From assembly GCA_964598745.1 (NCBI GenBank), contig CAZRCV010000001.1:1-63052 (forward strand): a stretch of 63,052 nucleotides of DNA, read 5' to 3'. Positions 28,772 through 58,608 of the stretch are shown piece after piece. Both the position numbers and the translations under genes were made by a program. The notes beneath the pieces are model-generated. The model ran no database searches and was not told where the DNA came from. It saw only the letters and a program-made list of their open reading frames with translations. Position 1 is the first letter of the stretch. Each line of letters opens with the position of its first letter. The stretch comes from an uncultured Methanosarcinales archaeon (GTDB lineage: Archaea; Nanobdellota; Nanobdellia; Woesearchaeales; GW2011-AR9).

Positions 28772-28904
28772 GGGCCAGTAGCCTAGCCTGGAAACTTAGG
28801 GTAAATAGGGCGTCAGCCTTCTATCCTCGCGGAAAGATAGCTGAAGATCGTGGGTTCAAATAGTAGCTGCATTTCGCAGTTTGTTGAAAGTCCCTCCTGG
28901 CCCG
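28772..28904 (+). tRNA. tRNA-Arg(UCU) with three predicted introns (D-loop, 37/38, T-loop)
   Basis: Hand-folded. Acceptor GGGCCAG/CTGGCCC plus G73. D-arm GCCT-AGCCTGG[~28792-28805]TA-GGGC. Anticodon stem TCAGC/GCTGA with loop CTTCTA[28824-28838]A. T-stem GTGGG/CCCTC with ~30 nt (about 28860-28889) inserted in the TTCAA..T loop. Mature length ~74 nt. Confidence 0.7.
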
Positions 28905-28905
28905 C

Positions 28906-28913
28906 TTTTTTTT
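28906..28913 (+). terminator. Oligo-T terminator after tRNA-Arg
   Basis: Run of 8 T starting 2 nt after the discriminator base. Archaeal transcription terminates at oligo-T tracts. Confidence 0.5.
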
Positions 28914-29015
28914 AATTATCAGTTTAATTATTCAAAAATAAAAAAAAACATAACTTATTAAACAAGATTAAATGAATATTATTTTTGCTGTTATTTGCGT
29001 TAAAAAGAGGTCTTT

Positions 29016-30779
29016 ATGAAGGAACCTTATGGTGTAGAAAAGGATATTGGGTTTATGGGAGTTCTGTCAATAACTTTTAGAAGCATGATTCATGCTTTTC
29101 CTTTAATTTTTGCTAGCTTATTACTATTGGCTACAATTGCTGGTATTCTATTAACTGCTGCCCCTAGAATTTTCCAACAGATTATCGACTTTATTATTGC
29201 TGGAGAAAGTAAGGACATTTTTTTAAAATCGTTGATTTTATATGGAGTTTGCCTTTTTGTTGGGCTTATTTGTAAATTTGGAGCTACCAAGATTAGCTTT
29301 TATATTGCTACACAAGTAGAAGATTGTTGGAGATACAAGGGGTTAAATCATTATTACAACCTGCACTTAGCGTGGCATGATAAGCATGATTCCGGAGAAG
29401 TTGCTACTAAAATTGATAAAGGCGGCGGAGCGATTTTTGCATTATTATATGAGCTTTTTGGCCATAATTTGTTAGTTTCATTAATAACTCTTTTATTTGT
29501 GCTAATTTACACTTTTCTAACCTTCCCCTGGTTTGGAATGGCATTACTTCTTCCAATTCCGTTGTATATCGCTGTAACTTTCATTATTTCGCAAAAAATC
29601 GCCAAAGCGCAAGGCAAATTAAACAGGTTGGAAACAAAAGCCAGTCGAGCACTCTATGATGGGGTTTCTAACGTGAGAGCGGTAAAAGCCTTTGGAAAGG
29701 AAGAATTAGAAACAAAATATTATGCCGGACGATGGGATAAGTATCACAGTCATGAATACAAAGTTGAACGGTTATGGTTTACTCAAGAATTCATTCAAAC
29801 CGCGATAGAAGTAATTTTAAGAATTGCCATTCTAACTTACTGCATTTATGCTGTCATTAACAATAAAATAACTATCGGCCAGTTGATTTTAATCATTAGT
29901 TACCAGCAAATGACTTTTGCGCCGTTAGCTCAACTGAATCAATTATTTACAAGAGTGAGGAGAAAAGCCAAACAAGCTTCCCATTTGTTTGAGATCATTA
30001 GCGAACCAGATCTCTTGAGAGATAGAAAAGAGGCAAAAATTATTGAACCATTAAAAGGAAAAATTGAATTTAAAGATGTAACTTTTGAGTATCAAAAAAA
30101 AGCTGCGGCATTGCATAATATCAATCTACAACTACCTGCAGGAACAACTACCGCATTGGTAGGCAGAAGCGGCGCAGGAAAATCAACTTTGGCTTTATTA
30201 TTGCTAAGGTTTTATGATCCTGACAGCGGTGTAATTAGTTATGATGGAGTAGATTTGCGAGATATTAAACGCGCCTCGCTGCGGCAGCAAATGGCCTGGA
30301 TTCCACAAGATACCAGCTTGTTTAATCGAACCATTAAAGAAAATATAGCTTATGGCAAAGCAGGAGTTGTCATGGCACAAATAGAGCAAGCTGCGCGCCT
30401 GGCCCATGCTCACGAATTTATTTTAAACACACCTAATGGATATAATTCAGTTATTGGAGAAAGAGGTGTTAAATTATCTGGAGGACAAAGACAGCGCATT
30501 GCTATTGCCCGTTCGCTGCTGACAAAACCAAGCCTTTTAATTATGGATGAGTCCACTAGCCACTTAGACAGTGAAACTGAAAAGGCTATCAGTGAATCCA
30601 TTCGGGAACTGCATCATAAAACAACGCAAGTAATTATAGCCCACCGCCTTTCAACCATCTTACATGCTGACCAGATTGTTGTTTTAGACCAAGGAAAAAT
30701 TATAGCAGTAGGCAAGCACCCAGAGTTATTAAACAATCAAATATATAAAAAATTATATCAACTGCAGTTTCATCACTAA
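29016..30779 (+). CDS. ABC exporter, fused permease/ATPase (MsbA/MdlB-like)
   Basis: Six-TM N-terminal half. Walker A GRSGAGKST, signature LSGGQRQR, Walker B LLIMDEST, H-loop AHRL. Confidence 0.9.
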   Translation: MKEPYGVEKDIGFMGVLSITFRSMIHAFPLIFASLLLLATIAGILLTAAPRIFQQIIDFIIAGESKDIFLKSLILYGVCLFVGLICKFGATKISFYIATQVEDCWRYKGLNHYYNLHLAWHDKHDSGEVATKIDKGGGAIFALLYELFGHNLLVSLITLLFVLIYTFLTFPWFGMALLLPIPLYIAVTFIISQKIAKAQGKLNRLETKASRALYDGVSNVRAVKAFGKEELETKYYAGRWDKYHSHEYKVERLWFTQEFIQTAIEVILRIAILTYCIYAVINNKITIGQLILIISYQQMTFAPLAQLNQLFTRVRRKAKQASHLFEIISEPDLLRDRKEAKIIEPLKGKIEFKDVTFEYQKKAAALHNINLQLPAGTTTALVGRSGAGKSTLALLLLRFYDPDSGVISYDGVDLRDIKRASLRQQMAWIPQDTSLFNRTIKENIAYGKAGVVMAQIEQAARLAHAHEFILNTPNGYNSVIGERGVKLSGGQRQRIAIARSLLTKPSLLIMDESTSHLDSETEKAISESIRELHHKTTQVIIAHRLSTILHADQIVVLDQGKIIAVGKHPELLNNQIYKKLYQLQFHH

Positions 30780-30890
30780 ATAAAACCAAAAAATGATATT
30801 GGGTTTTATATTTTACTCACTGATTAAAAGTCAAAAAATTGCTTGAACTTTCCCACTTTGGAAAGACTTCCCACGCCCTTCCGCAGGATA

Positions 30891-31022
30891 TCAATAGGCC
30901 TTGCTGCAAACATTATATTTTAGTTTTTGTGCATCCTTTGGGGCATGGTGTTTCACAAAATTGGCCATTCTGCTCAAATCTTGCAACAGTTTTATTTTAT
31001 TATAATTGCAATGACCTAACAT
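30891..31022 (-). CDS. Possible 43-aa small protein
   Basis: ATG preceded by GAGGTGAT with a 4-nt spacer (strong SD-like motif). No homology recognised. Lies in an otherwise unassigned 385-nt gap. Confidence 0.25.
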   Translation of the reverse strand: MLGHCNYNKIKLLQDLSRMANFVKHHAPKDAQKLKYNVCSKAY

Positions 31023-31132
31023 TACTATCACCTCGCTCTCTTAAGAATTAACTTTATTCTTAACAGGTTATAATCATTTTAAAGAGTATAGATAAACCGG
31101 TTAAATTCAAAAGAAATTATCCTCCGCGAAAA

Positions 31133-31142
31133 CTATATAAAG
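31133..31142 (+). promoter_or_regulatory. TATA-box-like element upstream of tRNA-Cys
   Basis: CTATATAAAG centred about 28 nt upstream of tRNA position 1 (31166). Confidence 0.55.
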
Positions 31143-31165
31143 TATTGATTATCTGAATCACTCAG

Positions 31166-31294
31166 GCGCTCGTAGCCAAGCGGCTAAGGCAATCGCCTGC
31201 AGAACCGCTAAGATGAGCCAATGAAATGGTTATGGCTTAGAAGACAGCGATCATTCGAGGGTTCGAGATTTGAGCGAAAATCCCTCCGAGCGCT
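31166..31294 (+). tRNA. tRNA-Cys(GCA) with two predicted introns (43 nt at 37/38, 13 nt in the T-loop)
   Basis: Hand-folded. Acceptor GCGCTCG/CGAGCGC plus U73. D-arm GCCAAGCGGCTAAGGC. Anticodon stem ATCGC/GCGAT with loop CTGCAG[31203-31245]A. T-stem GAGGG/CCCTC with loop TTCGA[31267-31279]AT. Mature length is exactly 73 nt. Confidence 0.8.
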
Positions 31295-31320
31295 TTTAAT
31301 ATCTAATCGATGATAGAGAG

Positions 31321-31761
31321 ATGAGACAAAAAGCTACTTTTGCTTTAGGTTGTTTCTGGGAACCACAAGATTATTTTTCTAAATTACCCGGAGTAATTAC
31401 TATTACTGTAGGTTATATTGGAGGAAAATCCAAAAATCCAACTTACGCAAAAGTTTGCGGGGGTAATACGGGGCATAGTGAAGCAATAGAAATAATCTTT
31501 GACGATGAATTGATTTCCTTTAAGCAGTTATTAAATCACTTTTGGAAATGGCATAACCCTACAGAGAAGAACATCAACCAATACGCTTCAGCTATTTTTT
31601 ACCATAACGAAAACCAAAAAAAACAAGCTAATGATAGTAAAAAATGTATAGAAAACAAGTTAGGATCAAAAGTAGTGACTAAAATTATCAAGGCTACTAT
31701 TTTTTATCAAGCAGAGGAATATCATCAAAGATTTTTGGAGAAAATGACCAGATTTAAATAA
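31321..31761 (+). CDS. msrA: Peptide methionine (S)-sulfoxide reductase MsrA
   Basis: ATFALGCFWEPQ active-site motif, GYIGG..NPTY..VC.G.TGH.E, EEYHQ. Confidence 0.85.
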   Translation: MRQKATFALGCFWEPQDYFSKLPGVITITVGYIGGKSKNPTYAKVCGGNTGHSEAIEIIFDDELISFKQLLNHFWKWHNPTEKNINQYASAIFYHNENQKKQANDSKKCIENKLGSKVVTKIIKATIFYQAEEYHQRFLEKMTRFK

Positions 31762-31796
31762 TTCTCCGGTCTCATTTTTGTTAGAGGTTTATCTGT

Positions 31797-32174
31797 ATGG
31801 CAAATAAGTCTGAAAATAAATATACACGTTCTGATTTTCGCATTACTAGAAACAATGTGTTGGGCGATTATATTAATGCTTGGAATCCCCATTGGTCAGC
31901 TCATGAAGAAATTAAGATTATTACTGCTAAAGGTCTTGTGGCCTTTTCTCAAGATTTAGCGCTCATTAAACAACCTATCCAACGATATAAACAGTATATC
32001 AGTAACAAATATCCAACTAGATTAAAACAACTTTTAGAGGAAAGCGACTCTGCTGTTGTTGAAAAAATAAATGCCTTAGTAGAATTGTTTAACCAAGAAT
32101 TAAAACAAGGGCATCAAGATAAAGAGGTTTTTCTGAAATATTATAATGCAGTAAAAGTCTTGATGGGGAAATAA
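31797..32174 (+). CDS. Hypothetical protein (125 aa)
   Basis: ATG ORF. No recognisable motif. Confidence 0.35.
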   Translation: MANKSENKYTRSDFRITRNNVLGDYINAWNPHWSAHEEIKIITAKGLVAFSQDLALIKQPIQRYKQYISNKYPTRLKQLLEESDSAVVEKINALVELFNQELKQGHQDKEVFLKYYNAVKVLMGK

Positions 32175-32505
32175 TTTAGTAGACTTCCCTTTTTTGTGAA
32201 GTTTATATAATTTTAACACTTACTTTAACAAAATATTTTCTTAATAGAGCGGGAAAACAGGCATCAACAGCGCCATAGATTGCATCATTATCACCAGCAA
32301 AAAACGTATTTTTCAAAACTTAGGCCCATATTGTTTCTTCTTTGCTGGGGGCTATTTTTGATGGTTTGATTATAATGGGAGTATTATTGTACTAACTAAA
32401 CAATTCTGACTACAATCGAAGTTAGTAAAAATTTAGAGTAGAATCGCACCATTTAGCCGAAAATAGAGAAAATAGATATAAATAAACAGAACATTCAAGA
32501 CAACA

Positions 32506-33591
32506 ATGAAAAAGAACTCTTTAGCCTCATTAGAATTGGCAGCTATTATTAATGAACTGCAGTTTTTAAAAAATGGCAAGATTTCCCAGATTTATCACCA
32601 AAATGAAGAATTATTGCTGCAGTTGCATACACCTAGCTTACGCAAGCAATTTTTGAAAATTATTCCCGGCAAGTTACTTTGTTTAACCATCAATAAAAAT
32701 CCACCCTTAAGACCTTCTGGATTTTGCATGCAGCTGCGCAAATACTTAGATAATGCTGTTATAACAGATCTTTACCAAAAAGACGCTCAAAGAATAGTGG
32801 TGTTGGAATTAGAAAAAAAAGAGGCCTATTTTTTAATCATAGAATTATTTTCTAAAGGGAACATTATTTTAACTAACCACGCCTTTAATATTATCGGGGT
32901 TCTGCAGCCACAAATTTGGAAAGATCGAGTAGTTAAAGCAAAACAAGATTATGTTTTCCCATTGCCGGGAGTTAATTGGAAGGGACTAAAACTAGCTGAA
33001 TTTGAGAAAATTATTAAAATAAGCGATAAAAAAAATATTGCTACAACTTTAGCTACGGAATTAAATCTAGGCGGAGTTTACGCAGAAGAAATTTGCGCTA
33101 TGGCTGGTGTTGATAAAAACTTGCTAGCTACAAATTTAACTTTGATGCAGTGTCAGCTCCTCTACAGCGAACTGAAAGAGGCATTAAGAAAAATCTTGCA
33201 TCCGCAGGGATTTATCTACGTAGAACAAATTACCCCCTTTAAACTGGCTGGCCCAGAACCGATTACTGTCACTAAAACCTATAATGAAGCCATTGATTCT
33301 TTAAATCCTTTTCAAAGAACTACCCCGCTTGAAAGGAAGATTAATACTATCAACAGGAGAATTATTGAACAGGAGGATGTGATTAAATCTCTGGGACAGA
33401 AGATAACTGTCGCCCAAAGAAGCGGGGAATTGATTTATGAAAATTACACTTCATTAAAAACGTTATTACAATTGGTTGCAGAGTTAAAGGTTAACCACAA
33501 CTGGATTGAAATGATGGATGAGTTAAAACGACAAAATAGGATTACTCAATTTAATCTTAAACATAAAACAGTAGTAGTAAATTTATCTTAA
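32506..33591 (+). CDS. NFACT-N domain protein (Rqc2/FbpA homologue), C-terminally short
   Basis: N-terminus LELAAIINELQFLKNGKISQIYHQNEELLLQL.. and a later HhH-like LNLGGVYAEEIC segment match the NFACT-N architecture. It ends in the coiled-coil region, and no DUF814/NFACT-R part was recognised. Confidence 0.6.
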   Translation: MKKNSLASLELAAIINELQFLKNGKISQIYHQNEELLLQLHTPSLRKQFLKIIPGKLLCLTINKNPPLRPSGFCMQLRKYLDNAVITDLYQKDAQRIVVLELEKKEAYFLIIELFSKGNIILTNHAFNIIGVLQPQIWKDRVVKAKQDYVFPLPGVNWKGLKLAEFEKIIKISDKKNIATTLATELNLGGVYAEEICAMAGVDKNLLATNLTLMQCQLLYSELKEALRKILHPQGFIYVEQITPFKLAGPEPITVTKTYNEAIDSLNPFQRTTPLERKINTINRRIIEQEDVIKSLGQKITVAQRSGELIYENYTSLKTLLQLVAELKVNHNWIEMMDELKRQNRITQFNLKHKTVVVNLS

Positions 33592-33628
33592 GAAAAAACT
33601 AAGGTAAAGATTATGAAATAAATAGCTT

Positions 33629-34372: not shown

Positions 34373-34410
34373 AGAAAAAGATTAAAAAGAATTAGATATC
34401 TATAACTGTT

Positions 34411-37852: not shown

Positions 37853-40054
37853 TTAATTTTTTAGATTAAGGTCTTCATAATCTTTCTCAAAAATGCCAAT
37901 TAGTTTCTGAGCCATAATTTCACCTACTCCCGGGGTTTGCAGTAAATCTTCCCTAGAAGCATTAGTTAAATTTCTTATAGATTTAAACTTTTTAAGCAAG
38001 TTTCGAGCAGTAACCATGCCTATCATTGGCAAGGAAGAAACAATGAACTCCTGCTGTTCACGAATGGATAATGGTTTTTTCTCCGGATAAAAAAAATTCT
38101 GGCTCTGGCCTTGTTCTCTTTTAGCCATGATAGCTAATAGTGCTGCTGTATCTTTTGGGTTCTTAGTATAAAGTACCGGTACCTTAAAATCTAAGGTAAT
38201 AGAAGCCAGCATACCACGTATAGCATTAGCATGTACCTTCCTAACAGTATAGATATCTTCTTCTCCTTCTACAACTAGGATTGCTTTATCAAAATTAGTT
38301 TTAAGATCTTTTACTTGATGAAGTAATCGACCGTCAACTATAGAATTTACAAAGTCTGTAATTGTTTTTAGTTCTACACCTACTTTTTCAGATAAAATGT
38401 AATCGGCAGAATTAAGTTGAGCCGTCTTTACACTTATCCCCAGCTCTATTAATTCCTTAACTATTCTGTTATCTTTCTCCCGGTGGTCGGCTAAAATAGC
38501 TACTACTTGATCTTTAGGAATAAAGCGATTTAATGAGTTATCTGTAACCGGCTTTTCTAAAACTAAATCTGTTTTTATTTTCTCTAAATTAGAATACATT
38601 CTTTTTTCCTTGTGATGAGAGACCCAGCGATATATTTCATCTCGCGTTCCTTCAGTTACTAACACTGTAACTTGTCCGCCTTGTAACCTTCCTGTTCTGC
38701 CACGCCGCTGGATAGCTCTAATAGCGCTAGGTATTGGTTCGTAGAAAATAACTTCTTCGACTTTAGGAATATCCAATCCTTCTTCTGCTACAGAAGTAGC
38801 TACCAACACTCTAAATTCACCTTGGCGAAAACGATCTAAAATTTGTTTTTGCTCTTTCTGAGAAAAACCCAGGCCGTTCTTCCTAGTTTGTCCGACAAAA
38901 ATATGGCTAGTTATTTTTATCTCAGACAGAACCTTGATAATTTGTTCAGCCGAATCGCGAAACTGTGTGAAGATAATAGTTTTACTATCTCCATTGCTTT
39001 CGGCCATAATCTGCTTTAGTTTAATTAATTTAGGATGCTGTAAATTAGAATCAGCCAACGCGGTAGTGGAGTGAACTGCTAATTTAAAATTAGCATCCAA
39101 ACTGAGATTTTTAGCCGCTTTAGTTTTGGAATTAACTGCTTCTAACTGAAGTTTTTTAAAGTAAGAATCTAATGGCTTAATACCTTGTGTTTCTAGCAAT
39201 TCAATAGCATGATCAACTTTCAAAGCTTCGGCAATTAATGATAACGATCTTAATAATTCAAAATCACGATAACCGCTATTAAGCTTTTTTTGCAAATCTC
39301 TTTGTAATAATAATAGTTGCCCTTTAGTTAATTCCAGATTATTGCAATAACCTAAATTCTTAGCTTCGATTAACTTGCTTTTTTTACAATTAAGTAACTG
39401 TTGCTGAATAACCTTTAATTGGGACGGGAAAGCTACTTTTTGCCAATTAATTTTAACTTTTTGTAAATAATCCTTAACATCAGGATCTTTTTCGGTTCTA
39501 ACTTCTACTTTTTCAATCTGCAAATTTTTACATATTTCTTTAATCTGTTCTAAATCGCTGCCAGGAGAAGCAGTAAGTGCCAGAATTCGGGAATACTTGC
39601 TTAGTCCAGCATATTGACGAGCTAACCAGACATAAGCATAATCTCCCGTAGCATGATGGGCTTCATCAAAAACTAACAAAGAAACTTCTTGTAAATTTAT
39701 TCTTTGGTTTATTAAATCGTTCTGCAATCCCTGGGGCGTAGAAATAATAACTTTACCAGATTTCCATAGTTCAGCTCGGCGTTCTGGTTTGACATCTCCA
39801 GTAAACAAAGTAAAACTTTCTTCAGGCAAGTCTAAATGATTTTTAAAAGTAAGCCAATGTTGCTCACAGAGTGGTTTAGTTGGAGCTAGTATTAATACCT
39901 TCGAATTTGGATAGTGGTTAAAACGTTGAGCTGCTAACAGAAAAGCTATGGCTGTTTTGCCTAAACCTGTAGGTAAGACTACTAACGTATTATAACGGGC
40001 AGCAGTGCCTAAAATGGTCTGTTGGTATAACCTAGGTTGAAAATTTTTAATCAC
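37853..40054 (-). CDS. hef: Hef-type helicase/nuclease (SF2 helicase fused to ERCC4/XPF nuclease and HhH2)
   Basis: Walker A PTGLGKT, DEAH box VFDEAHHA, motif VI QRRGRTGR. C-terminal ERCC4 motif ADHREK..GVELKTITDF..DGRL and terminal (HhH)2. Confidence 0.85.
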   Translation of the reverse strand: MIKNFQPRLYQQTILGTAARYNTLVVLPTGLGKTAIAFLLAAQRFNHYPNSKVLILAPTKPLCEQHWLTFKNHLDLPEESFTLFTGDVKPERRAELWKSGKVIISTPQGLQNDLINQRINLQEVSLLVFDEAHHATGDYAYVWLARQYAGLSKYSRILALTASPGSDLEQIKEICKNLQIEKVEVRTEKDPDVKDYLQKVKINWQKVAFPSQLKVIQQQLLNCKKSKLIEAKNLGYCNNLELTKGQLLLLQRDLQKKLNSGYRDFELLRSLSLIAEALKVDHAIELLETQGIKPLDSYFKKLQLEAVNSKTKAAKNLSLDANFKLAVHSTTALADSNLQHPKLIKLKQIMAESNGDSKTIIFTQFRDSAEQIIKVLSEIKITSHIFVGQTRKNGLGFSQKEQKQILDRFRQGEFRVLVATSVAEEGLDIPKVEEVIFYEPIPSAIRAIQRRGRTGRLQGGQVTVLVTEGTRDEIYRWVSHHKEKRMYSNLEKIKTDLVLEKPVTDNSLNRFIPKDQVVAILADHREKDNRIVKELIELGISVKTAQLNSADYILSEKVGVELKTITDFVNSIVDGRLLHQVKDLKTNFDKAILVVEGEEDIYTVRKVHANAIRGMLASITLDFKVPVLYTKNPKDTAALLAIMAKREQGQSQNFFYPEKKPLSIREQQEFIVSSLPMIGMVTARNLLKKFKSIRNLTNASREDLLQTPGVGEIMAQKLIGIFEKDYEDLNLKN

Positions 40055-43918: not shown

Positions 43919-46546
43919 TCAAACTCCTGGACTAAGTTTATCATCGCTTTGTATCTTCTCTAAATGTTCGTCAACAACTTTTTCACTTTCTGAACCTGAG
44001 CTAGGCTGTGATTGTTCTGAACTAGGCAAATTTAAATTCGTAACAGAATTAGGCTCATCAAAATTACTGCCATCAGTAGGACTAAAACTACCCCGAGTTA
44101 ATTCTAAAGGAACTTCTTCATCAACAACTATTGCTGCGGCAGCCAATTTATCACCTGGGCTTAATCTAATAACGCGGACGCCTTGAGTGGCCCTGCCAAT
44201 TAAAGAAATTTCTGAACAACGAACCCGGATGGCAATTCCCTTTTCAGTAACTAGCATCAGCCCCTCTGAACCATTAACTAATTTAATAGCTTTAACTGGC
44301 CCATTCTTTTCTGTTATTTTGATATTAGTTACGCCTCTTCCACCACGATTGCAAAGCCGATAATCCTCCACTGAAGTTCGTTTTCCATAACCATTTTCTG
44401 TTAAGGTTAACACCTGTTTAGTTTGTTCAGCGGTAATCATGCCTATCACCTCATCCTCTTTGGTTAAGCGAATACCTCTTACTCCGCCTGCGGTACGTCC
44501 CATAGTTCGCACCATTTGTTCATTAAAGCGATTGGCATAACCATTTTTGGTAGCTAAAATTATCTCCTCATTGCCAGAAGTGTATTTAACACTAACTAGT
44601 GTATCCTGATTTTCTAAAGTTATGGCTCTGATTCCTCCTTTTCTAGGATGAGAAAATTCTAGCAGGCTTGTCTTTTTAACTGTGCCGCGCTTGGTAGCCA
44701 TAAACAAATTGCCTTCCTTAAAATTAAGGACTGGAATAACTGCTGAAATTTGTTCGCCTTCTTCTAGTTCCAGTACATTAGAAACATGTTTTCCTTTAGC
44801 TTGCCTGCTACCTTCCGGAAGAGAATAAACTTTCTTCCAATAAACTTGGCCCCTGTCTGTAAAAAATAGTAAATAGTCATGAGTTGAAGTAATGTAAAGG
44901 CTCTTAACAAAATCCTCCTCATTAATTCCCGCTGCTTTAACGCCTTTTCCACCACGGCTTTGTGTTTTATATGTATCAAGGGGAATTCTTTTAATATAAC
45001 CAGAGTTGGTAATGGTAACTGCCATGGTAGCCTCTTCAATCAATTCTTCCATATCGACTTCTTCATCATCGTCATTAGGCACAATCGTCGATCTACGAAC
45101 ATCGCCATAACTTAGTTTTAATTCTGATAACTCTTCCTTGATTAAAGAAAGAACTTTTGCTACAGAACCAAGAATCTCTAAATAATAATTAATCCTTTCT
45201 AGAAGTTCAGTATGTTCCATTTTAATCTTTTCTTGTTCCAAGGAAGCCAACTTTTGCAGCCGCAGTTCTAGGATAGCTTTAACTTGGGTTTCAGATAAAG
45301 AATAATTTTGCATTAAAAACCTGGCTGCGTCCTCCACAGTTCGAGAATTTCTGATTCCGGGAATGACTTGATCTAAATTTGCGAGAGCTACCAATAATCC
45401 TTCCAATACTTGAACCCGCTTCTGGGCTTGCTCTAATTCATATTTAGTTCTTCGGACAATCACTGTTTTACGGTGGTCAATGTGAGCCTCGATAATTTGT
45501 TTAAGGCTTAGAATTTGTGGCTGTGAGTTAACCAAGGCTAACATAATTATTCCAAAAGAAACTTTCAACCGGCTAAATTTATACAGCTGATTTAGTATAA
45601 CTTGCGGATCAGTTTCTTTTTTAAGTTCTATTACAATGCGAATACCTTCCCGATCAGATTCGTCATTAATATTTTTGATCCCATCGACAGTTTTATCCTT
45701 AACCAAATCAGCAATTTGCTTAATTAGCTCCTCTTTGTTTACCTGATAAGGAATTTCAGTGACAATTATCTTATCACTAATTATTTTGCAGACCGACATT
45801 ATTGTAACTTTTCCCCGGCCATTAACATAAGCAGAAATTAAAGGCGAGCCACAACCAACTTCACCGCCAGTAGGGAAATCTGGGCCAGGGATGATTTTGA
45901 TCAATTCTTCAGTATTAATTTCTGGGTTGTCGATAGTAGCGATAATAGCATTACAGACTTCAGAAAGGTTGTGTGGCGGCAGATTAGTAGCCATTCCCAC
46001 GGCAATGCCGGAAGAGCCATTAACCAATAAATTTGGCACTAAAGAAGGCAAAACCTCTGGCTCTTTCAGCGATCCATCAAAATTATCTTTGAAATCAACA
46101 GTGTTCTTGTCTATATCTATTAATATCTCCTCAGCCAATTTTTGCAGTTTGGCCTCAGTGTAACGCATCGCTGCTGCAGAATCTCCATCAATAGACCCAA
46201 AGTTACCCTGTCCCCTAATTAATGGATAACGCAAAGAAAAGTCTTGGGCCATGCGCACTAGTGAATCATAAACTGCCGTATCACCATGAGGATGATACTT
46301 GCCTAAACAGTCTCCAACAATACGAGCGCATTTTTTGAATGGTTTGTTGCTCATAAGCCCCATTTCGTACATACTGTAAAGAATTCTTCTATGCACCGGC
46401 TTCAATCCATCGCGCACATCAGGCAAAGCCCGGCCCACAATCACCGACATGGCATAATTAATATAAGCTGTTTTCATTTCCTCTTCAATTACACGAGAAA
46501 AGATGTGATTGTTTTCAGCAGGAGGATCAGCTGGTAGAGTTGCCAT
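43919..46546 (-). CDS. gyrA: DNA gyrase subunit A
   Basis: [26 protein letters not shown], catalytic-Tyr motif [12 protein letters not shown]-terminal beta-pinwheel repeats and an acidic/Ser tail. Confidence 0.95.
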
Positions 46547-47329: not shown

Positions 47330-47330
47330 T

Positions 47331-49376: not shown

Positions 49377-49386
49377 TTTTATAAAA
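49377..49386 (+). promoter_or_regulatory. TATA-box-like element upstream of tRNA-Leu
   Basis: TTTTATAAAA centred about 28 nt upstream of tRNA position 1 (49410). Confidence 0.55.
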
Positions 49387-49409: not shown

Positions 49410-49565
49410 GCGGACGTGCCGGAGTGGTCAAACGGGATAGCTTGTTTGGCAATAATGCTAAACGAATCCAAACTCAAGTCCTAGAAGTGAGACTAACGAT
49501 CCTAACGTGCAAAGGAGTCATCTATTGGCTTAGTGCCTACGCAGGTTCGAACCCTGCCGTCCGCA
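49410..49565 (+). tRNA. tRNA-Leu(CAA), class II, with two predicted introns (about 30/31 and 37/38)
   Basis: Hand-folded. Acceptor GCGGACG/CGTCCGC plus A73. D-arm CCG-GAGTGGTCAAA-CGG with G13.A22. Long variable arm TGGCTTAGTGCCTAC. T-arm GCAGG-TTCGAAC-CCTGC. The only CU-NNN-R loop is CTCAAG (49473-49478). Model: stem ATAG[49441-49471]A / TCTAT, with a second intron at 49479-49519. Mature length 84 nt. Boundaries are uncertain. Confidence 0.6.
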
Positions 49566-52678: not shown

Positions 52679-52761
52679 AATTATTTTCCTTTCTTATCTT
52701 TTTAATTTTTTTTATGTAGTGTTAGTTATTAATGCGGAAACAGTTCTGACACAAAAAAAGT

Positions 52762-53127: not shown

Positions 53128-53197
53128 AGTATACTGCTTAACTGAAAACAGATATTTAAAGCTTTCTTCAAAGTTATATAAAAAAATTAGTTTTTAA

Positions 53198-53611
53198 CTA
53201 AATCTTCAAAATTAACTGTTTTAATTTAGAACTTTTTTGTCTGTTTTGACAATAGGAAGGTATGCGTTTAATCTCTGGAGCTAAGCCCAAAGACATTAAT
53301 TTCTGGCGAAGTTCCAATTCTGATACTGGGTGGTCATAACCTAAACAAATAACGTCTGGTTTTCTTTGTAAAATAATTTTGAAGTGATCTGTCTGGTCAC
53401 CAAGAACTGCTTCGTCAACTGCCTTAAGGCTTTGAATAAGTTTTAGCCGCTCTCGTTCTTGAAAAATAATCGGTTTTTTTTGTTTTTGTTTAGTTTTGTC
53501 CCTGGCAATTACCACAATAAGATAATCTCCTTGTTTCCTAGCTTGTTCCAAATAATAAAGATGGCCTAAGTGAAGAAGATCAAACGTTCCAAAGCACATC
53601 ACTGTTTTCAT
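53198..53611 (-). CDS. ribL: Cytidylyltransferase-family nucleotidyltransferase, probably FAD synthase RibL
   Basis: CFGTFDLLHLGHLYYLEQA.. (HxGH), VVIARD, and overall collinearity with archaeal RibL (~140 aa). Confidence 0.65.
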   Translation of the reverse strand: MKTVMCFGTFDLLHLGHLYYLEQARKQGDYLIVVIARDKTKQKQKKPIIFQERERLKLIQSLKAVDEAVLGDQTDHFKIILQRKPDVICLGYDHPVSELELRQKLMSLGLAPEIKRIPSYCQNRQKSSKLKQLILKI

Positions 53612-53645
53612 GGTTTATTATAGCAAGACTTCGCGAGGTTGTAGT

Positions 53646-55712
53646 TTAGCCCTTCTTTTCCACCAACCGGGCCTGTTTAATTATTAATCTTCCGCTGTTA
53701 CGAGAATCCATCATTTTATCAGAAGCAGTAATTTCAATTCGCCTATTAAACAAAGGACCGTCTAATACTAGACTCTCATATTCCCCCCCTTCACCAGCCA
53801 TGTTGCTGTGAATCAAGGATTTAAGTTTTATTAACGATTCCGAATTAATTTCTCTACCCAACCATGTTTCATCCATGCCATCAGCAGCAATAGCCGTAAT
53901 AATAACTACAAATCCTGCCTTAATTACTTCCTGCAGGTGTGTTTCCTGTTGTTTATGCCATAAAGGAGCAAAAATTTTCAAGCCTAACTTGTCACAAATC
54001 TTTTCTATCCTGTCTCTTTGATAAGTGGAAAATAAGGCTCCTGAAACAATCCCCGTAAGAGCATATTGTCCTTTAGCTCTTTTAAGAGCTATTTCTAAGT
54101 CTATTAATTCTTCTTCTTTTTCGCCGTTGGTTTCTTGAACTAGCAAAGGAATCCCCATCGCCTCAGACTGCAATTGCACCAACTCTGTCCCTGCCTTCTG
54201 AAACATATAAGAGTGCTGATTTTTAGGTTTTAAAGTAATTAAACAAGCAATATCATAATTTTGTTTTTTCATGATATAAGCCGCAGATGTAGAATCCTTT
54301 CCAGAAGAAAATAAAACGCCTAATTTCTGGTTAGGCTTAGAATAAAAAGTTTTAAGGTACTGTGATTTTGAAGAAATTTTATGTTGTTTGGCTAATTTAC
54401 CCAAGGCCCAGTCAAATCTAGACCCATACTGGGCAGCTGTTTTTTTACGGAAGGCAACCTGCTCCGGCAAGCCTTTTTCTAAAGCTAGATGGCGAAGAAT
54501 GAGCTTAGTGACTGGTTCTTTTATTTTATAGCGGCCAGGAATTTTCAGAACATAACTTACCAACTCTTGGTCTAGATATGGAAGACGTAATTCTAATCCA
54601 TTTTCCATAGTTATCACGTCATCGCGGTAAAGGTCGCGTTCATATAATTTTAATAAACCAGAAAGACATTCCTGGTTAATGTTAGAAGATGATTTATGAC
54701 GATCATAACCAGCAAATATTTCTTCACTGCCTAATCCAGAAAAAATAACCTTGCATCCCGCATTCCCAGCAGCTTGGCAAGCTATAAAAAATGGCAAAGC
54801 CACACCAACTTTAACTACATTAGAATCTTCAATTAATGGCACAATTTGCTGTAAATAGAACGGAATTTCCTTAAGCTTTATTGCAACTATAACTAAATTT
54901 AACCCTAGCTTTTCCGCTGCTAACTTAGCTGCAATTAAATCTGGAGCTTGGGAGTTACCATCTTCTAAAATGGCAGTATAACAAGTGAAATCATAATTAT
55001 GGTCTTTAAAATATTTAGCTAAATAAGTCGAATCAACACCACCTGAAAACAGCAAGCCAAATTTATGGGCTGGCACTCTTTTTTGAATGGCTTTATCCAA
55101 CAAAAGAGAGGTATGCTGTTTAATCTGTAAGTAAGTTTCTTTATGCTCTGGCAGATAACTAAAAAATTCACGGTATTGGAATAACAAAGTATTTGTAGGC
55201 GGGATATAAGTAGCGATTTGCCGAGGATTAAGTTCTATAATGTCAGTATAACCTAACTGTTGTAAAACTTTGGCTTCAGAAGCAAAAGCAAAATTACCTT
55301 GGTTATGGCTATACCATAAGGGCTTTTCGCCAAGGATGTCCCTAACCAATATTAACCGTTGATTTTGATAATACGCCAGTGCAAATACCCCCTCCAGTTC
55401 ACCTATTTTCTGCAAACCAAAGCGATCCAGAAACCTTAACAACAATTCTGCGTCATTTCTGGCATTGAAACTATATTTTTTATCTAATTCTTGCCAATTA
55501 TAGATTTCACAATTAGTAGTTATGGCCCCGCCCTCCTGCAGCGGCTGCGGAACTTTGTTTACCACTGCATGCAAAGTATGGCCCATTACCGCCGTGGAAT
55601 TTAACTTTAAACAAGCTGAGCCATCTCTGCCCCTATTTTTAAGCAAAACCAAAGCTTGTTGTACCTGCTCCAAGGCTAGATGGTGATTAAATACTCCTAT
55701 TATGCCACACAT
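53646..55712 (-). CDS. Fusion protein: class II glutamine amidotransferase + asparagine-synthase-type PP-loop domain + Dph6/MJ0570-type diphthine-ammonia ligase domain
   Basis: MCGIIGV (Cys2 Ntn nucleophile). First PP-loop LLFSGGVDSTYLA. C-terminal ~220 aa has a second PP-loop VLFSSGKDSTSAAY, GIVSGALFSTYQRDRIEKICDKLGLKIFAPLW and GEGGEYESLVLDGP, typical of Dph6. Confidence 0.75.
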   Translation of the reverse strand: MCGIIGVFNHHLALEQVQQALVLLKNRGRDGSACLKLNSTAVMGHTLHAVVNKVPQPLQEGGAITTNCEIYNWQELDKKYSFNARNDAELLLRFLDRFGLQKIGELEGVFALAYYQNQRLILVRDILGEKPLWYSHNQGNFAFASEAKVLQQLGYTDIIELNPRQIATYIPPTNTLLFQYREFFSYLPEHKETYLQIKQHTSLLLDKAIQKRVPAHKFGLLFSGGVDSTYLAKYFKDHNYDFTCYTAILEDGNSQAPDLIAAKLAAEKLGLNLVIVAIKLKEIPFYLQQIVPLIEDSNVVKVGVALPFFIACQAAGNAGCKVIFSGLGSEEIFAGYDRHKSSSNINQECLSGLLKLYERDLYRDDVITMENGLELRLPYLDQELVSYVLKIPGRYKIKEPVTKLILRHLALEKGLPEQVAFRKKTAAQYGSRFDWALGKLAKQHKISSKSQYLKTFYSKPNQKLGVLFSSGKDSTSAAYIMKKQNYDIACLITLKPKNQHSYMFQKAGTELVQLQSEAMGIPLLVQETNGEKEEELIDLEIALKRAKGQYALTGIVSGALFSTYQRDRIEKICDKLGLKIFAPLWHKQQETHLQEVIKAGFVVIITAIAADGMDETWLGREINSESLIKLKSLIHSNMAGEGGEYESLVLDGPLFNRRIEITASDKMMDSRNSGRLIIKQARLVEKKG

Positions 55713-55767
55713 AAGTGACTAATTTACTAAGTTCTTTTAAAAGTTTAGCCTAAATTTTTAATAATAA

Positions 55768-56868
55768 TTATTTTAAATGAATTTCCAGAATGTCATTATC
55801 AGCCAAGGAATGGTCCAATCTTCTGAATTGTTGGCCGGGAAACTTAGCGCTCTTTCCCCAAAGCCTGGCAAACTTAAATCTAGACACAAAATCTTTATGC
55901 GTTTTTTCGCAAACATCTTTAATAGTAGACTTTTGTTTTAATATCATTGGTTCCTGCAAATCAGCCTCTTTCCTTGGTTCTTTTAGGTAAATTCTGATAA
56001 AATTTAACTTTTGAAAAATTAATTCTTTTAAATTATCAATATTAAGATTTAGTTCTGCAGAAACAGCAATATCAGCATTTAATTGTTTTTTTATTTCTGA
56101 AACTTGTGCTGCAGTAGCCAAGTCAGCTTTGCTAATACAGGTGATAGCAGGCAAATATTTTCTGTTGCTTTCAATGCAGTCAATGAAATCATCCACATCA
56201 ATCGGACTTCTGATTAATACTTCTGCATTCATAATTCTGAACTCACGCAAAATCTCTTTTATGGTGTTATCATCTAAATCGATAACTACCGTTTTGCCTA
56301 CTTGGATGCCGCCTGAACTTTTCCTCTTTATGAAAACTTCAGGTTTAGTTTTGTTTAACCTAATTCGCGATTCCCATACTTCTTTCAACATTGCTGGATA
56401 ATGCTCCGGGTGGTTAATATCAACAATAATCAACACCATATCAGCATTTTGAATTACCGCTAGAACCTCTTTTCCCCTGCCACGGCCGGAAGCAGCCCCG
56501 GAAACTATTCCAGGCACATCCAATATTTGAATCTTAGCTAGATTATAATTAAGCATGCCTGGAATTACCGTTAGCGTAGTAAAAGCATAGGCTGCAACTT
56601 CAGAGTTTGTTCCAGTAAGGGTGTTTAAAAGAGTTGATTTTCCGGAGGAAGGAAACCCAAGCAACAGCACTGTAGCATCGCCAGACTTGCGAACAGAATA
56701 ACCATGTTCAGATTTGCCTGTTTTTTGACTTGAACGCAACTCCTGTTTTTCCCTAAGCTGAGAAATTTTAGCTTTTACTATGCCAATATGCCCCTGTGTT
56801 GCCTTGTTATATTTGGTTTTTTTTAACTCTTCTTGTAATTCCTTAATTTTTTTAGTATAGTCAACCAT
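55768..56868 (-). CDS. DRG-family (Obg-like) GTPase with a C-terminal TGS domain
   Basis: G1 GFPSSGKSTLLN, G3 DVPG, G4 CISKADL. N-terminal helical KATQGHIG..KAKISQLR. C-terminal TGS-like ..DNDILEIHLK. Confidence 0.85.
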   Translation of the reverse strand: MVDYTKKIKELQEELKKTKYNKATQGHIGIVKAKISQLREKQELRSSQKTGKSEHGYSVRKSGDATVLLLGFPSSGKSTLLNTLTGTNSEVAAYAFTTLTVIPGMLNYNLAKIQILDVPGIVSGAASGRGRGKEVLAVIQNADMVLIIVDINHPEHYPAMLKEVWESRIRLNKTKPEVFIKRKSSGGIQVGKTVVIDLDDNTIKEILREFRIMNAEVLIRSPIDVDDFIDCIESNRKYLPAITCISKADLATAAQVSEIKKQLNADIAVSAELNLNIDNLKELIFQKLNFIRIYLKEPRKEADLQEPMILKQKSTIKDVCEKTHKDFVSRFKFARLWGKSAKFPGQQFRRLDHSLADNDILEIHLK

Positions 56869-56976
56869 GATTCCTCTGTTTAAGAAGAAAAGGTATTTTT
56901 AACCTTTTGGTATCAGATAAGTTACATCCATTTATATTCGATACGTTTATATATAATTATAACCGCAAGTCAGCTT

Positions 56977-57510
56977 GTGGTCGCTTGGTTATGGGGATTA
57001 ATACAAACTTATTTTTATAACCTAGCCGCAGGAATTGGATTTCTTTTAATTGGGTTGGCTTTGGGTATTCTCGTAAAAAAAATAACTTACAGAGTTTTAA
57101 AAGAAATTGAACTAAACAGAATTATGAGCAAGGTTGGTGTAAACTACAATTTGGATCATGGGATCAGCTCAATCCTTTCTTACTTGGTATATTTGATTGC
57201 CGTTACTTTTTTCTTAAGGCAGCTAAACATAACTTCGATTGTGTTATACTTGATCCTGGGGGCCTTGTTGATGTTACTAATTTTAACTGTAATCGTCGGC
57301 TTAAAAGATGTTATACCTAATTTCGTAGCATGGATACTAATACAGAAAAGAGGGAAAATTAAAGAAGGGTATCAAGTAAATGTAAGAGAAATTGAAGGAA
57401 AGATTGAAAAGATTGGATTTTTAGAAACAGAAATACAAACTGAAAAAGGAGACTTACTTTACGTGCCCAATACTCTGTTTTTAAAAAGTAAATTTTGGGT
57501 TAAAAACTAG
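56977..57510 (+). CDS. Small MscS-like mechanosensitive channel protein
   Basis: Three TM helices, then GYQVNVREIEGKIEKIGFLETEIQTEKGDLLYVPNTLF (MscS beta-domain motif). GTG start. Confidence 0.55.
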   Translation: MVAWLWGLIQTYFYNLAAGIGFLLIGLALGILVKKITYRVLKEIELNRIMSKVGVNYNLDHGISSILSYLVYLIAVTFFLRQLNITSIVLYLILGALLMLLILTVIVGLKDVIPNFVAWILIQKRGKIKEGYQVNVREIEGKIEKIGFLETEIQTEKGDLLYVPNTLFLKSKFWVKN

Positions 57511-57516
57511 TGTAAA

Positions 57517-57756
57517 CTATTTTAGGCTTTCTAACAAACTAATAACATCCCAAACTTGAGTCCGATAATATGATGACAGTTCTAAAGAACTTAGTTCTTC
57601 CAACTCTAGTAAGGCTTTATCAATAGCTAAATCTGGGCCTTGTTCTAATATCTTGATAGCCTGTTTGGCCTTCTCTTTAAACAATTTGCTTGTATCTGGA
57701 TCCTCTATCATAGCGTGAAGGTGACTTATTACTTCATAGTAAGGAGAGTTATTCAT
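57517..57756 (-). CDS. UPF0147-family small helical protein
   Basis: 79-aa helical-repeat protein (..MIEDPDTSKLFKEKAKQAIKIL..YYRTQVWDVISLLE) that overlaps the prefoldin beta stop. Matches the archaeal UPF0147 pattern by eye. Confidence 0.5.
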   Translation of the reverse strand: MNNSPYYEVISHLHAMIEDPDTSKLFKEKAKQAIKILEQGPDLAIDKALLELEELSSLELSSYYRTQVWDVISLLESLK

Positions 57757-58070
57757 TTTGTTTTAGTTTCCTTTAGCAGTTCATTCTGCAAGCTTTCGAT
57801 AACCTGGTTAAGATTTTCTTCTTGCCTAATAAAGTTTTTTAGACGAATTTGCAACAAGTTCTTTTTTTCAAGAAGCTCTACCTTTAATGCTTCAGGAGAA
57901 GCCAAAACCATAATTTTACCAATAATCTTAAAAGTTTTCTTAGCAACAGGGATATTTTCTAAAGCAGAGTCTAGTTCTGACAGCTGTGAATGTAATTGCT
58001 GTTTCTGTGCAACTACAGATTGCAAGTTCTGCTGAGTAAGTTGAAGCTGACTAACTTTTTCAGAGGGCAT
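57753..58070 (-). CDS. pfdB: Prefoldin beta subunit
   Basis: 105-aa coiled-coil/beta-hairpin/coiled-coil layout (QLQLTQQNLQSV..FKIIGKIMV..LKNFIRQEENL). Conserved neighbourhood with eL43 and rpoP. Confidence 0.75.
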   Translation of the reverse strand: MPSEKVSQLQLTQQNLQSVVAQKQQLHSQLSELDSALENIPVAKKTFKIIGKIMVLASPEALKVELLEKKNLLQIRLKNFIRQEENLNQVIESLQNELLKETKTK

Positions 58071-58084
58071 ATTTTCTTAAGCTG

Positions 58085-58219
58085 CTAACGAGCCTTTATT
58101 TTATTGGGGATTTTTCGATCCTTAAATAGAATTTTTCCACCGCAGTAAGGGCAACGAACTTTAGTTTTAACGTATTCTTCTTCCACTTTTTTACCACAAT
58201 CAAAGCAAATGTAATACAT
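58085..58219 (-). CDS. rpoP: DNA-directed RNA polymerase subunit P (Rpo12)
   Basis: Hand-translated 44-aa ORF missing from the track: MYYICFDCGKKVEEEYVKTKVRCPYCGGKILFKDRKIPNKIKAR. It has the CxxC..CxxC zinc ribbon and the typical position after eL43. Confidence 0.8.
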   Translation of the reverse strand: MYYICFDCGKKVEEEYVKTKVRCPYCGGKILFKDRKIPNKIKAR

Positions 58220-58224
58220 TTTTA

Positions 58225-58419
58225 TTATACCGGCATATAAGCCTTCCCTGTAAATTTCTTTTTTGTTTTAGTGCAATACCAGATGCCAGAAGCTAAACGC
58301 TTAACGGAGTTTTTATTACAAAACGGACTTTTGTGGGGTTTGCGCTGTTCTATTTCTATTTTGGCAAACTTAGCTTTTGGCTTTCTGCCATACCGAGCAC
58401 CGAATCGTTTTGTAGGCAT
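58225..58419 (-). CDS. rpl37ae: 50S ribosomal protein eL43 (L37Ae), zinc-free variant
   Basis: TKRFGARYG..IEIEQRK..VKRLASGIWYC..FTGKAY matches eL43. Only one Cys remains in each of the two usual CxxC knuckles. Confidence 0.8.
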   Translation of the reverse strand: MPTKRFGARYGRKPKAKFAKIEIEQRKPHKSPFCNKNSVKRLASGIWYCTKTKKKFTGKAYMPV

Positions 58420-58454
58420 AAATAAATTCCGTCTAAACTTTAATTTAAAGAGTA

Positions 58455-58608
58455 TGGGGCTGCCCGGATTTGAACCGGGGTTCAGTGGTTTTTTTGTTTT
58501 CGGTCATCGCCGAGGGCTCACCCAAACCACTAGTGATAAATTACTCGAAGCGGGAGTGCAGTTCACTTAAATCAGCATCCCGCCATCACCAAGCTACACT
58601 ACAGCCCC
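58455..58608 (-). tRNA. tRNA-Pro(UGG) with two predicted introns (~50 nt in the D-loop, 31 nt at 37/38)
   Basis: Hand-folded on the minus strand. Acceptor GGGGCTG/CAGCCCC plus A73. D-arm GTGT-AGCTTGGT[58587-58538]A-TCAC. Anticodon stem AGTGG/CCACT with loop TTTGGG[58520-58490]A. T-arm CCCGG-TTCAAAT-CCGGG. Mature length 73 nt. Confidence 0.7.

Follow-up and report, generated by a model that had tools for sequence, protein, structure and literature searches.

Multi-intron tRNA genes are known from Crenarchaeota, above all Thermoproteales, and from Nanoarchaeum equitans, M. kandleri, Korarchaeum, ARMAN-1/2 and Cyanidioschyzon merolae, with a stated maximum of three introns per tRNA gene (PMC4033280, PMC8450103). 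In Pyrobaculum calidifontis, 71 introns are distributed over 46 genes, and the mean for Thermoproteales is 0.84 introns per gene (PMC8450103). It has also been reported that DPANN lineages, including one Woesearchaeon, have an alpha4-type tRNA splicing endonuclease (EndA) with an extra C-terminal L3 loop, that this enzyme is associated with more disrupted tRNA genes, and that incomplete tRNA sets point to undetected ones (PMC5829648). In this study, we analysed a 63,052-bp stretch of DNA, hereafter the window (positions 1 to 63,052 of contig CAZRCV010000001.1, assembly GCA_964598745.1, labelled uncultured Methanosarcinales archaeon and placed by GTDB in Woesearchaeales), which holds interrupted tRNA genes for Arg(UCU), Cys(GCA), Leu(CAA) and Pro(UGG). 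With nine introns in four genes, its density is 2.25 introns per gene, which, for a sample of four genes, is at or above the published extremes. We interpret these loci as four functional archaeal tRNA genes, each with two or three introns of the bulge-helix-bulge (BHB) type that would be spliced by EndA, and on the sequence data we put the probability of this interpretation at about 0.9. The gene interruption is of a known kind, unusually dense and invisible to routine tRNA finders, and not a new mechanism.

No tRNA was found in the window by ARAGORN at default settings or by Rfam at gathering thresholds. Under permissive filters, the Rfam tRNA model RF00005, whose gathering score is 29 bits, matched positions 49410-49565 (38.6 bits) and, on the minus strand, 58455-58608 (36.6 bits); both matches exceeded that score and both contained large internal insertions. 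ARAGORN -i, which permits one intron only, left the Arg and Cys loci uncalled. Its single-intron calls of Glu(ttc) at the Leu locus and Phe(gaa) at the Pro locus were rejected, being contradicted by the orthologues described below. When the nine segments were cut out in silico, ARAGORN called tRNA-Arg(tct), tRNA-Cys(gca), tRNA-Leu(caa) and tRNA-Pro(tgg), all with normal cloverleaves. There are three introns in the Arg gene and two each in the Cys, Leu and Pro genes, of 13-48 nt each. They occupy sites 19/20 in the D-loop, 30/31, 37/38 and 59/60 in the T-loop, four of them at the canonical 37/38 site and five elsewhere. The spliced sequences keep A14, G18G19, U33 and TTCRA, and their identity elements include A20 of tRNA-Arg, which is made at a splice junction, U73 of tRNA-Cys, A73 of tRNA-Leu and G37 of both tRNA-Leu and tRNA-Pro.

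A first-pass annotation, made from the letters of the window, had placed the four tRNA loci where we find them, had required the removal of two or three insertions per gene to give a standard cloverleaf, and had listed the conserved A14, G18G19, U33 and TTC(R)A residues; all of this was reproduced. Its division of the insertions into four at 37/38 and five at non-canonical sites (the D-loop of Arg and Pro, 30/31 of Leu and the T-loop of Arg and Cys) was likewise upheld by in silico splicing, BHB motifs and orthologues. Its mature lengths of 74, 73, 84 and 73 nt held for Cys (73 nt) and Leu (84 nt); tRNA-Arg has 75 nt, and tRNA-Pro most likely also 75 nt. It had further stated that every tRNA gene in the window is interrupted. 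A loose scan for an acceptor stem and a T arm, in which T-loop introns were allowed, recovered the four genes and otherwise gave AT-rich matches with weak stems (26 matches in total, compared with 5-13 in shuffled sequence). Since these other matches are AT-rich noise, four of the four tRNA genes in the window are interrupted, as that annotation had it.

We compared these genes with 201 loci (L-numbers below) fetched from contigs of related Woesearchaeota, Pacearchaeota and Nanoarchaeota. A metagenome scan with a degenerate 5'-exon pattern covering Arg and Pro contributed 120 loci. Another 78 were obtained with a D-arm/anticodon-stem pattern for Leu in GTDB species-representative genomes; these came from metagenome-assembled genomes (MAGs) labelled Woesearchaeota, Pacearchaeota or Nanoarchaeota, about one fifth of which bear the GenBank label 'uncultured Methanosarcinales archaeon'. 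Scans of viral contigs with the Arg and Pro 5' exons gave no match. For eight of the nine introns, an orthologue was found that lacks the intron at the same exact junction: L002 lacks both Cys introns; L079, L016 and L004 lack all three Arg introns; L164, L195 and L201 lack the Leu 30/31 intron; L100 lacks the Pro 37/38 intron; and L102 and L074 lack the Pro D-loop intron. The exception is the Leu 37/38 intron, which is carried by all orthologues of this Leu type; introns are absent from other tRNA-Leu(CAA) genes of the set. In exon sequence, the Arg, Cys and Leu genes agree with their orthologues at 93-100% of positions and the Pro gene at 88-92%; the introns, by contrast, cannot be aligned or are missing from the orthologues. 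Across dozens of genomes, some of them independent assemblies from other samples, introns are found at the same positions. This comparative evidence is the strongest support, and at the level of sequence the decisive one, for reading the four loci as real multi-intron genes.

The exon-intron junctions were then judged by BHB geometry, in which a 4-bp helix H pairs exon positions a-5 to a-2 with intron positions b-6 to b-3 and each cut falls after the second nucleotide of a 3-nt bulge. Position 32 is known to pair with the intron residue three nucleotides upstream of the 3' splice site, and the geometry used here agrees with this. In this model, all nine junctions can be folded into a BHB or a recognised relaxed form (hBH, HBh' or bulge-helix-loop), with the predicted cuts falling in the bulges. 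Four of the nine, namely Arg 19/20, Arg 59/60, Cys 59/60 and Leu 30/31, combine a 4-bp H with 3 bp or more of flanking helix, as compared with 0.25% of random junction pairs within these loci. The motifs of Leu 30/31, Arg 59/60 and Cys 59/60 also emerged from unconstrained minimum-free-energy folds of the unspliced loci (ViennaRNA). Each of the four canonical introns forms three H pairs out of four, along with the anticodon stem, and the two 13-nt introns (Arg 19/20 and Cys 59/60) are of the bulge-helix-loop type, with no inner helix. The strict hBHBh' form is missed by most junctions of the window, whereas relatives are strict at the same sites. Because the same relaxed pattern recurs in orthologues (the Arg intron of L036; the Pro family), the relaxed canonical motifs are probably tolerated rather than decayed. 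No other copy of any of the nine introns was found in the window and they show no similarity to one another, so that there is no sign of intron transposition. In the intron similarity comparison, the Pro anticodon intron was the only one of the nine that resembled an intron of a relative.

The tRNA-Cys(GCA) gene gives the plainest comparison. It spans 31166-31294 on the plus strand (129 nt) and yields a mature tRNA of 73 nt with a U73 discriminator. Intron 1 (31203-31245, 43 nt) lies at the canonical 37/38 site, and its boundary slides by 1 nt because there is an A on both sides; intron 2 (31268-31280, 13 nt, ATTTGAGCGAAAA) lies at 59/60 in the T-loop. In L002, a relative whose Hef helicase is 70% identical to that of the window, an intron-less tRNA-Cys at 21780-21853 of that locus (minus strand) is identical to the spliced window exons at 73 of 73 positions. 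Both introns are missing there at the exact junctions, the T-loop reading TTCGAGT, and the local gene order and the upstream TATA box are kept. The junction of intron 1 has three of four H pairs, with an internal G.A mismatch, and a 5-bp outer helix. At intron 2, H is TTCG/CGAA (4 bp) with the bulge AA|T, and the 5-bp T stem serves as outer helix.

The tRNA-Arg(UCU) gene occupies 28772-28904 on the plus strand (133 nt, mature 75 nt). Its three introns are a 13-nt one (AAACTTAGGGTAA, 28792-28804) in the D-loop at 19/20, between G19 and A20; a 15-nt one (TCCTCGCGGAAAGAT, 28824-28838) at the canonical 37/38 site; and a 30-nt one (28861-28890) in the T-loop at 59/60. Removal of intron 1 gives the mature D-loop AGCCTGGATA, which is the same as in orthologues, within the D arm GCCTAGCCTGGATAGGGC, which is identical in the intron-less L004 and L016. 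The intron-less L079, L016 and L004 combine this D arm with the T arm GTGGG-TTCAAAT-CCCTC, and the spliced gene is identical to L079 at 70 of 75 positions. The T stem GTGGG/CCCTC with its U50.U64 mismatch is thus common to the window gene and its intron-less orthologues, whose T-loop is TTCAAAT, and the acceptor stem shows a compensatory change (A6:U67 versus U6:A67). At the junction of intron 1, H is GCCT/GGGT with a 4-bp outer helix, and it is classed as bulge-helix-loop because it has no inner helix. Intron 2 has three of four H pairs (a C35.A mismatch), with the anticodon stem as a 5-bp outer helix and a 2-bp inner helix. The canonical Arg intron of L036 (TCCTTCAAGGGAAAGAG) is homologous to that of the window and shows the same three-of-four pattern; A38 is found in the Arg orthologues. 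At intron 3, H is TTCA/TGAA (4 bp) with the bulges AA|T and AG|T and the T stem as outer helix, and introns ending in GAAAG|T at this site are also present in L036, L033, L073 and L124. The three intron sites of the window gene are all occupied in the Arg genes of L036 and L033, and L112 has the canonical intron only.

Another relative, L098, shows a repeat at this gene: the last ~30 nt of its tRNA-Arg(UCU) (GCGGGTTCAAATCCCGCCTGGCCCGGA) recur ~70 nt downstream, with repeat starts ~106 nt apart. The repeat has the look of a duplicated attachment site, such as remains after an element has integrated into a tRNA gene. In several relatives (L016, L036, L079 and L112 were compared), tRNA-Arg(UCU) and tRNA-Cys(GCA) are direct neighbours; in the window an ABC-transporter gene (29016-30779) sits between them.

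The tRNA-Leu(CAA) gene (49410-49565, plus strand, 156 nt) encodes a class II tRNA of 84 nt with a long variable arm. Intron 1 (49441-49471, 31 nt) interrupts the anticodon stem at 30/31, and intron 2 (49479-49519, 41 nt) lies at the canonical 37/38 site. The mature sequence is identical at 83 of 84 positions to L164 minus its single intron. L164, L195 and L201 read GGGATAG|ACTCAAG without the 30/31 intron and keep the canonical one, and both introns are present, as in the window, in L166, L172, L139, L181, L128, L124 and L168. At the junction of intron 1, H is GGAT/ATCC (4 bp) with the bulges AG|C and AA|A and an inner helix of at least 6 bp (6 in the junction scan, 8 when a longer maximum was allowed). 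About 17 related tRNA-Leu genes across isoacceptors carry a 30/31 intron, nearly all ending in RTCCNN|, and this ending reads as the H strand plus two bulge nucleotides, exactly as BHB geometry predicts. The junction of intron 2 has three of four H pairs (an A35.G mismatch), and its outer helix is whole only after intron 1 has been removed or folded out. The canonical introns of L166, L128, L139 and L181 end in TGAGCC| with a perfect H (CTCA/TGAG); compared by eye, without alignment, intron 2 of the window looks like a decayed relative of these. Of the tRNA-Leu genes, 72 could be resolved: 29 are intron-less, 28 contain a single intron, 14 contain two and at least one contains more.

A tRNA-Leu(UAG) gene of 230 nt in Candidatus Woesearchaeota archaeon NC_groundwater_1984 (L174:2952-3181, minus strand), carries four BHB-type introns: 42 nt at 15/16, 26 nt at 30/31, 49 nt at 37/38 and 29 nt at 54/55. 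A 4-bp H is present at three of the four, and ARAGORN accepts the spliced 84-nt tRNA. The tRNA-Leu(CAA) of the same MAG (L196) has an identical 42-nt D-arm intron. With four introns, L174 exceeds the published maximum of three, and our literature search found no report of a four-intron tRNA gene.

A separate feature was seen in the canonical tRNA-Leu(CAA) introns of L129, L134, L159, L164, L192, L195, L199, L201, L166, L128, L139 and L181, which share GATGA-type motifs (GTGATGA ... CGATGA) around a hairpin, like a tandem-G.A/K-turn element. A TTGAGT immediately upstream is paired with the anticodon loop, which places C34 opposite the fifth nucleotide before an AUGA. This arrangement recalls the C/D-box Cm34 guide borne by the intron of Haloferax pre-tRNA-Trp; clean terminal C and D boxes are absent. 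The window intron at 49479-49519 has lost the GATGA-type motifs, and inspection by eye revealed no convincing C/D-box set in any of the nine window introns. The organism does have a C/D-box methylation machinery, with Nop5 (Pfam Nop, 16061-16930) adjoining fibrillarin (17096-17770).

The tRNA-Pro(UGG) gene lies on the minus strand at 58608-58455 (154 nt), where the alignment to the Rfam model was broken by a D-loop insertion of 56 nt and an anticodon-loop insertion of 34 nt. We place intron 1 at 58588-58541 (48 nt, D-loop 19/20), where the first-pass annotation had it at 58538-58587, and intron 2 at 58520-58490 (31 nt, canonical 37/38). The spliced sequence is identical at 66 of 75 positions to intron-less orthologues and at 69 of 75 to an orthologue with a D-loop intron only. 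Among 30 genes with the Pro 5' exon, 22 are interrupted (two of the 30 had no resolved structure). Introns are absent from eight genes and a single one is present in five; eight resemble the window in having both a D-loop and an anticodon-loop intron, another four carry two introns placed elsewhere, and three (L042, L071 and L073) carry three; these counts were read from the sequences, as the aligner split some D-loop introns in two. In about 12-13 of the 17 relatives with a D-loop intron, the 5' site directly follows AGCYTGG and the motif is strict hBHBh'. At the window junction, the matching register pairs GCTT with GAGT as H; two of these pairs are G.U and the flanking helices are weak, which makes this the weakest of the nine junctions. 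The resulting D-loop of 11 nt, AGCTTGGTTTA, closely resembles that of the intron-less L102, AGCTTGGTCTA. Because the 73-nt register of the first-pass annotation has no BHB support, a mature length of 75 nt is preferred and is the most likely one.

At the canonical 37/38 site of the Pro gene, L100, which has a D-loop intron only, reads TTTGGGACCATT, with the mature anticodon loop TTTGGGA, and introns homologous to that of the window are present in L025, L039, L094 and L109. The window junction is relaxed: either one of the four H pairs is lacking, or H has all 4 bp and the 3' bulge measures 4 nt. The 37/38 introns of the Pro family have a C at -7 rather than -6, and the strict form is found in L099 and L080. 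The gene order tRNA-Pro then L37Ae is conserved in relatives.

Expression signals were compared with those of related tRNA genes. In 192 upstream regions, TATA-like hexamers peaked at -30 to -27, with 103 in this bin versus 6-54 in the other 4-nt bins. In the window, the Arg gene has TTTAAA at 28741-28746, the Cys gene TATATAAA at 31134-31141 (AAAACTATATAAAG in L002) and the Leu gene TTTATAAAA at 49378-49386, all on the plus strand and centred at about -28. The Pro gene has a weak A/T-rich element at -27 (58631-58639, minus strand) and a TATA-like element, TTTATAAA, at the atypical distance of -15 to -8 (58616-58623, minus strand). A run of at least three T follows each of the four genes. The TATA-like boxes near -28 of three genes and the weak element of the fourth are as the first-pass annotation had described them, and its argument from these boxes to expressed genes gains support from the peak in the related genes.

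The upstream region of the Pro gene has features of its own. An element of the TTTATAAA type, at about -16 to -8, replaces the usual TATA box at ~-28 in the window gene and in 12 orthologues (L015, L025, L039, L073, L076, L082, L094, L100, L102, L109, L118 and L122). The form TTTATAAAT, at ~-12, is conserved in 11 of these (all but L094), and an L37Ae gene can be seen to follow several of them. Ten of the 12 orthologues have a second motif, ACCACAAATCTTTTAAA or its shorter core CTTTTAAA, at a distance of 42-54 nt upstream; in the window it is ~100 nt upstream, near 58700-58716. The -12 element is too close for a normal tRNA promoter.

Several observations weigh against the interpretation as spliced functional genes. 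Five of the nine junctions are off strict BHB, with an H mismatch or with two G.U pairs and weak flanks. The 3' site of the Pro D-loop intron is ambiguous and allows a mature tRNA of 73, 75 or 77 nt, and the strong TATA-like element of this gene lies at -12 instead of -28. Neither the window nor any of the 201 fetched loci yielded endA or rtcB; EndA was sought there by tblastn with M. jannaschii EndA (validated against PDB 1a79) and with a hidden Markov model built from 28 EndA sequences. A weak EndA match in L138 was rejected; it is RNase J. In a protein search with the ARMAN-2 EndA catalytic domain, the named matches were all from Micrarchaeota. The imperfect junction motifs, like the U50.U64 mismatch in the Arg T stem, would also suit decaying tRNA pseudogenes or debris with working copies elsewhere in the genome. 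However, that mismatch is shared by intron-less orthologues, the Arg acceptor stem has changed in a compensatory way, and identical intron positions occur in dozens of genomes. Promoters and T-runs are intact, and the exons match functional-looking orthologues at the identities given above while the insertions are unconstrained. None of the four genes has a lost cloverleaf, lost identity elements, a lost promoter or relaxed exons, and by the account in PMC4307357 the small genomes of these archaea usually hold one gene per anticodon. We consider decay very improbable. An assembly or chimera artefact, conceivable for a contig from a MAG, would have to explain why nine independent insertions, spread over four separate genes, fall exactly at BHB registers, why independent assemblies from other samples contain homologous introns, and why the surrounding genes are intact and syntenic with relatives; its probability is negligible.

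The remaining alternative concerns single insertions. Some of the non-canonical ones, such as those in the Arg D-loop, the Cys T-loop and the Pro D-loop, might be retained, or removed without EndA, and the lack of an inner helix in both 13-nt inserts, the weak flanks of the Pro D-loop junction and the failure to find EndA in the window or the fetched loci are in keeping with this. A retained insert, however, would destroy the D-loop/T-loop core, in which G18G19 contacts psi55C56. Close orthologues are without the inserts exactly at the predicted bulge cleavage sites, where an H helix and a 3-nt bulge occur at the required register. A self-splicing origin finds no support either: no Rfam intron family matched the window at gathering thresholds or at E <= 10, and group I and II ribozyme introns are typically longer than 200 nt, so 13-48 nt is too short. 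Bulge-helix-loop and hBH introns are, moreover, known EndA substrates in ARMAN-2 and Crenarchaeota (PMC4033280). Retention or EndA-independent removal thus seems quite unlikely for such inserts, and EndA splicing of all nine introns remains the preferred interpretation.

If so, each gene would be transcribed from its own TATA-box promoter as a long precursor ending at the T-run, and the precursor junctions would fold into BHB or the relaxed forms hBH, HBh' and bulge-helix-loop. EndA would cut within both bulges and an RtcB-type ligase would join the exons, giving standard tRNAs of 75 (Arg), 73 (Cys), 84 (Leu) and 75 nt (Pro). In the Leu precursor, the 37/38 motif would gain its outer helix only after the 30/31 intron had been excised or folded away. 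The introns are probably inherited vertically and quickly gained and lost; the relative with a 70% identical Hef has an intron-less, exon-identical tRNA-Cys. Because relaxed motifs are conserved in the orthologues, the Woesearchaeal EndA, reported to be alpha4 with an L3 loop, is predicted to be of broad specificity, as the first-pass annotation had also expected, and the alpha4 + L3 picture in the literature fits the intron load suggested here.

The window is ordinary core genome, with a G+C content of 35-40%. Its Hef helicase (37853-40054, minus strand) is 100% identical to an NCBI protein, and the next best relatives are 64-70% identical and named Candidatus Woesearchaeota, Nanoarchaeota or Nanoarchaeia, and for this reason the host is taken to be a DPANN archaeon (Woesearchaeota) and not a member of Thermoproteales. 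The core genes around the tRNA loci include Nop5, fibrillarin, RFC, topoisomerase VI A/B, GyrA, Hef, PCNA, RNase J and MsrA, and two class I aminoacyl-tRNA synthetases of the Trp/Tyr family are also encoded. Short co-oriented open reading frames (ORFs) at 85-15441 (minus strand) resemble a ribosomal-protein cluster, as judged from the ORF list without a profile scan. The genes that flank the tRNA loci are intact and syntenic with relatives.

Some neighbouring features were noted in passing. Gyrase and topoisomerase VI coexist in this archaeon; the GyrA of the window (43919-46546, 875 aa) has no intein, while that of a relative (L001:3618-6968) has one (Pfam Intein_splicing). The AT-rich 620-nt intergenic gap between an L3-like ribosomal protein gene and Nop5 contains a GC-rich island. 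A hidden RNA gene at 15722-15897 in this island was considered and rejected, since the island corresponds to an 80-aa Cys-rich ORF (CxxC ... CxC; 15678-15920, minus strand). At 53646-55712 (minus strand), a 688-aa fusion joins an asparagine-synthase-like amidotransferase to a diphthamide-synthase (Diphthami_syn_2) domain.

For annotation, the point is that ARAGORN and default Rfam report zero tRNAs where 63 kb holds four. In such lineages, 'missing tRNAs' and tRNA-based MAG quality grades would be artefacts of intron load. The recurrent sites and the sharp presence/absence differences between close relatives offer a clean system for BHB intron gain and loss outside Thermoproteales. It is conceivable, though doubtful, that Woesearchaeales, and this genome especially, bear the heaviest tRNA-intron load of any organism, with at least two introns per gene genome-wide, by means of an alpha4-type EndA that has neither the crenarchaeal nor the ARMAN specificity loops. 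In that case, intron proliferation would not be tied to the (alpha-beta)2 or epsilon2 EndA architectures, and the tRNA counts used to grade DPANN MAGs would be systematically too low.

Our search of the literature on tRNA introns and Woesearchaeota found no description of these genes, and several known systems can be set beside them. As outlined by Sugahara et al. 2008 (via PMC4033280) and in PMC8450103, Thermoproteales such as Pyrobaculum, Thermofilum and Caldivirga have up to three BHB or relaxed introns per gene at canonical and non-canonical sites, like the genes here. The same accounts (PMC4033280, PMC8450103) indicate that at the extremes more than half of the genes are multi-intron and that standard finders miss such genes, as in the window. 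The first-pass annotation had named Thermoproteales and a few other archaea as known for such intron density; in contrast to the hyperthermophilic, crenarchaeal Thermoproteales, the host here is a mesophilic, low-GC DPANN Woesearchaeon. Thermoproteales have an (alpha-beta)2 EndA with a CSL loop, whereas alpha4 + L3 would be expected here from the literature, and the nine window introns bear no sign of transposition.

ARMAN-1/2 (Micrarchaeota; Fujishima et al. 2011, PMC3239211) resemble the present case in being DPANN hosts with multiple non-canonical introns of the bulge-helix-loop and hBH types, and co-evolution with an epsilon2 EndA of relaxed specificity has been proposed for them (PMC3239211). 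They belong, however, to another DPANN phylum, and epsilon2 with the ASL (L2) loop is reported only for the Micrarchaeum/Mancarchaeum group (PMC5829648). Cyanidioschyzon merolae (PMC3728597) also has D-loop, T-loop and anticodon-loop introns with relaxed BHB motifs, but in a eukaryotic nuclear genome and with some genes permuted, as none is here. Split and permuted tRNAs of Nanoarchaeum equitans, Caldivirga and Thermofilum likewise depend on EndA at BHB motifs, and this other form of gene disruption occurs within the same broad Nanoarchaeota grouping. Unlike these, none of the four window genes is split or permuted: the exons are contiguous and colinear within 129-156 nt, in one transcription unit from one promoter to one T-run, with no reversed or separate parts and no trans-splicing. 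The closest precedent is the study of Kaneta et al. 2018 (PMC5829648), in which one Woesearchaeota and one Pacearchaeota genome were included and multiple-intron DPANN tRNAs were associated with the L3-loop alpha4 EndA. That study gives the proportions in a figure only and calls for manual curation (PMC5829648). The present analysis extends it with gene-level architecture, the recurrent sites 19/20, 30/31, 37/38 and 59/60, and a presence/absence comparison across ~100 orthologues.

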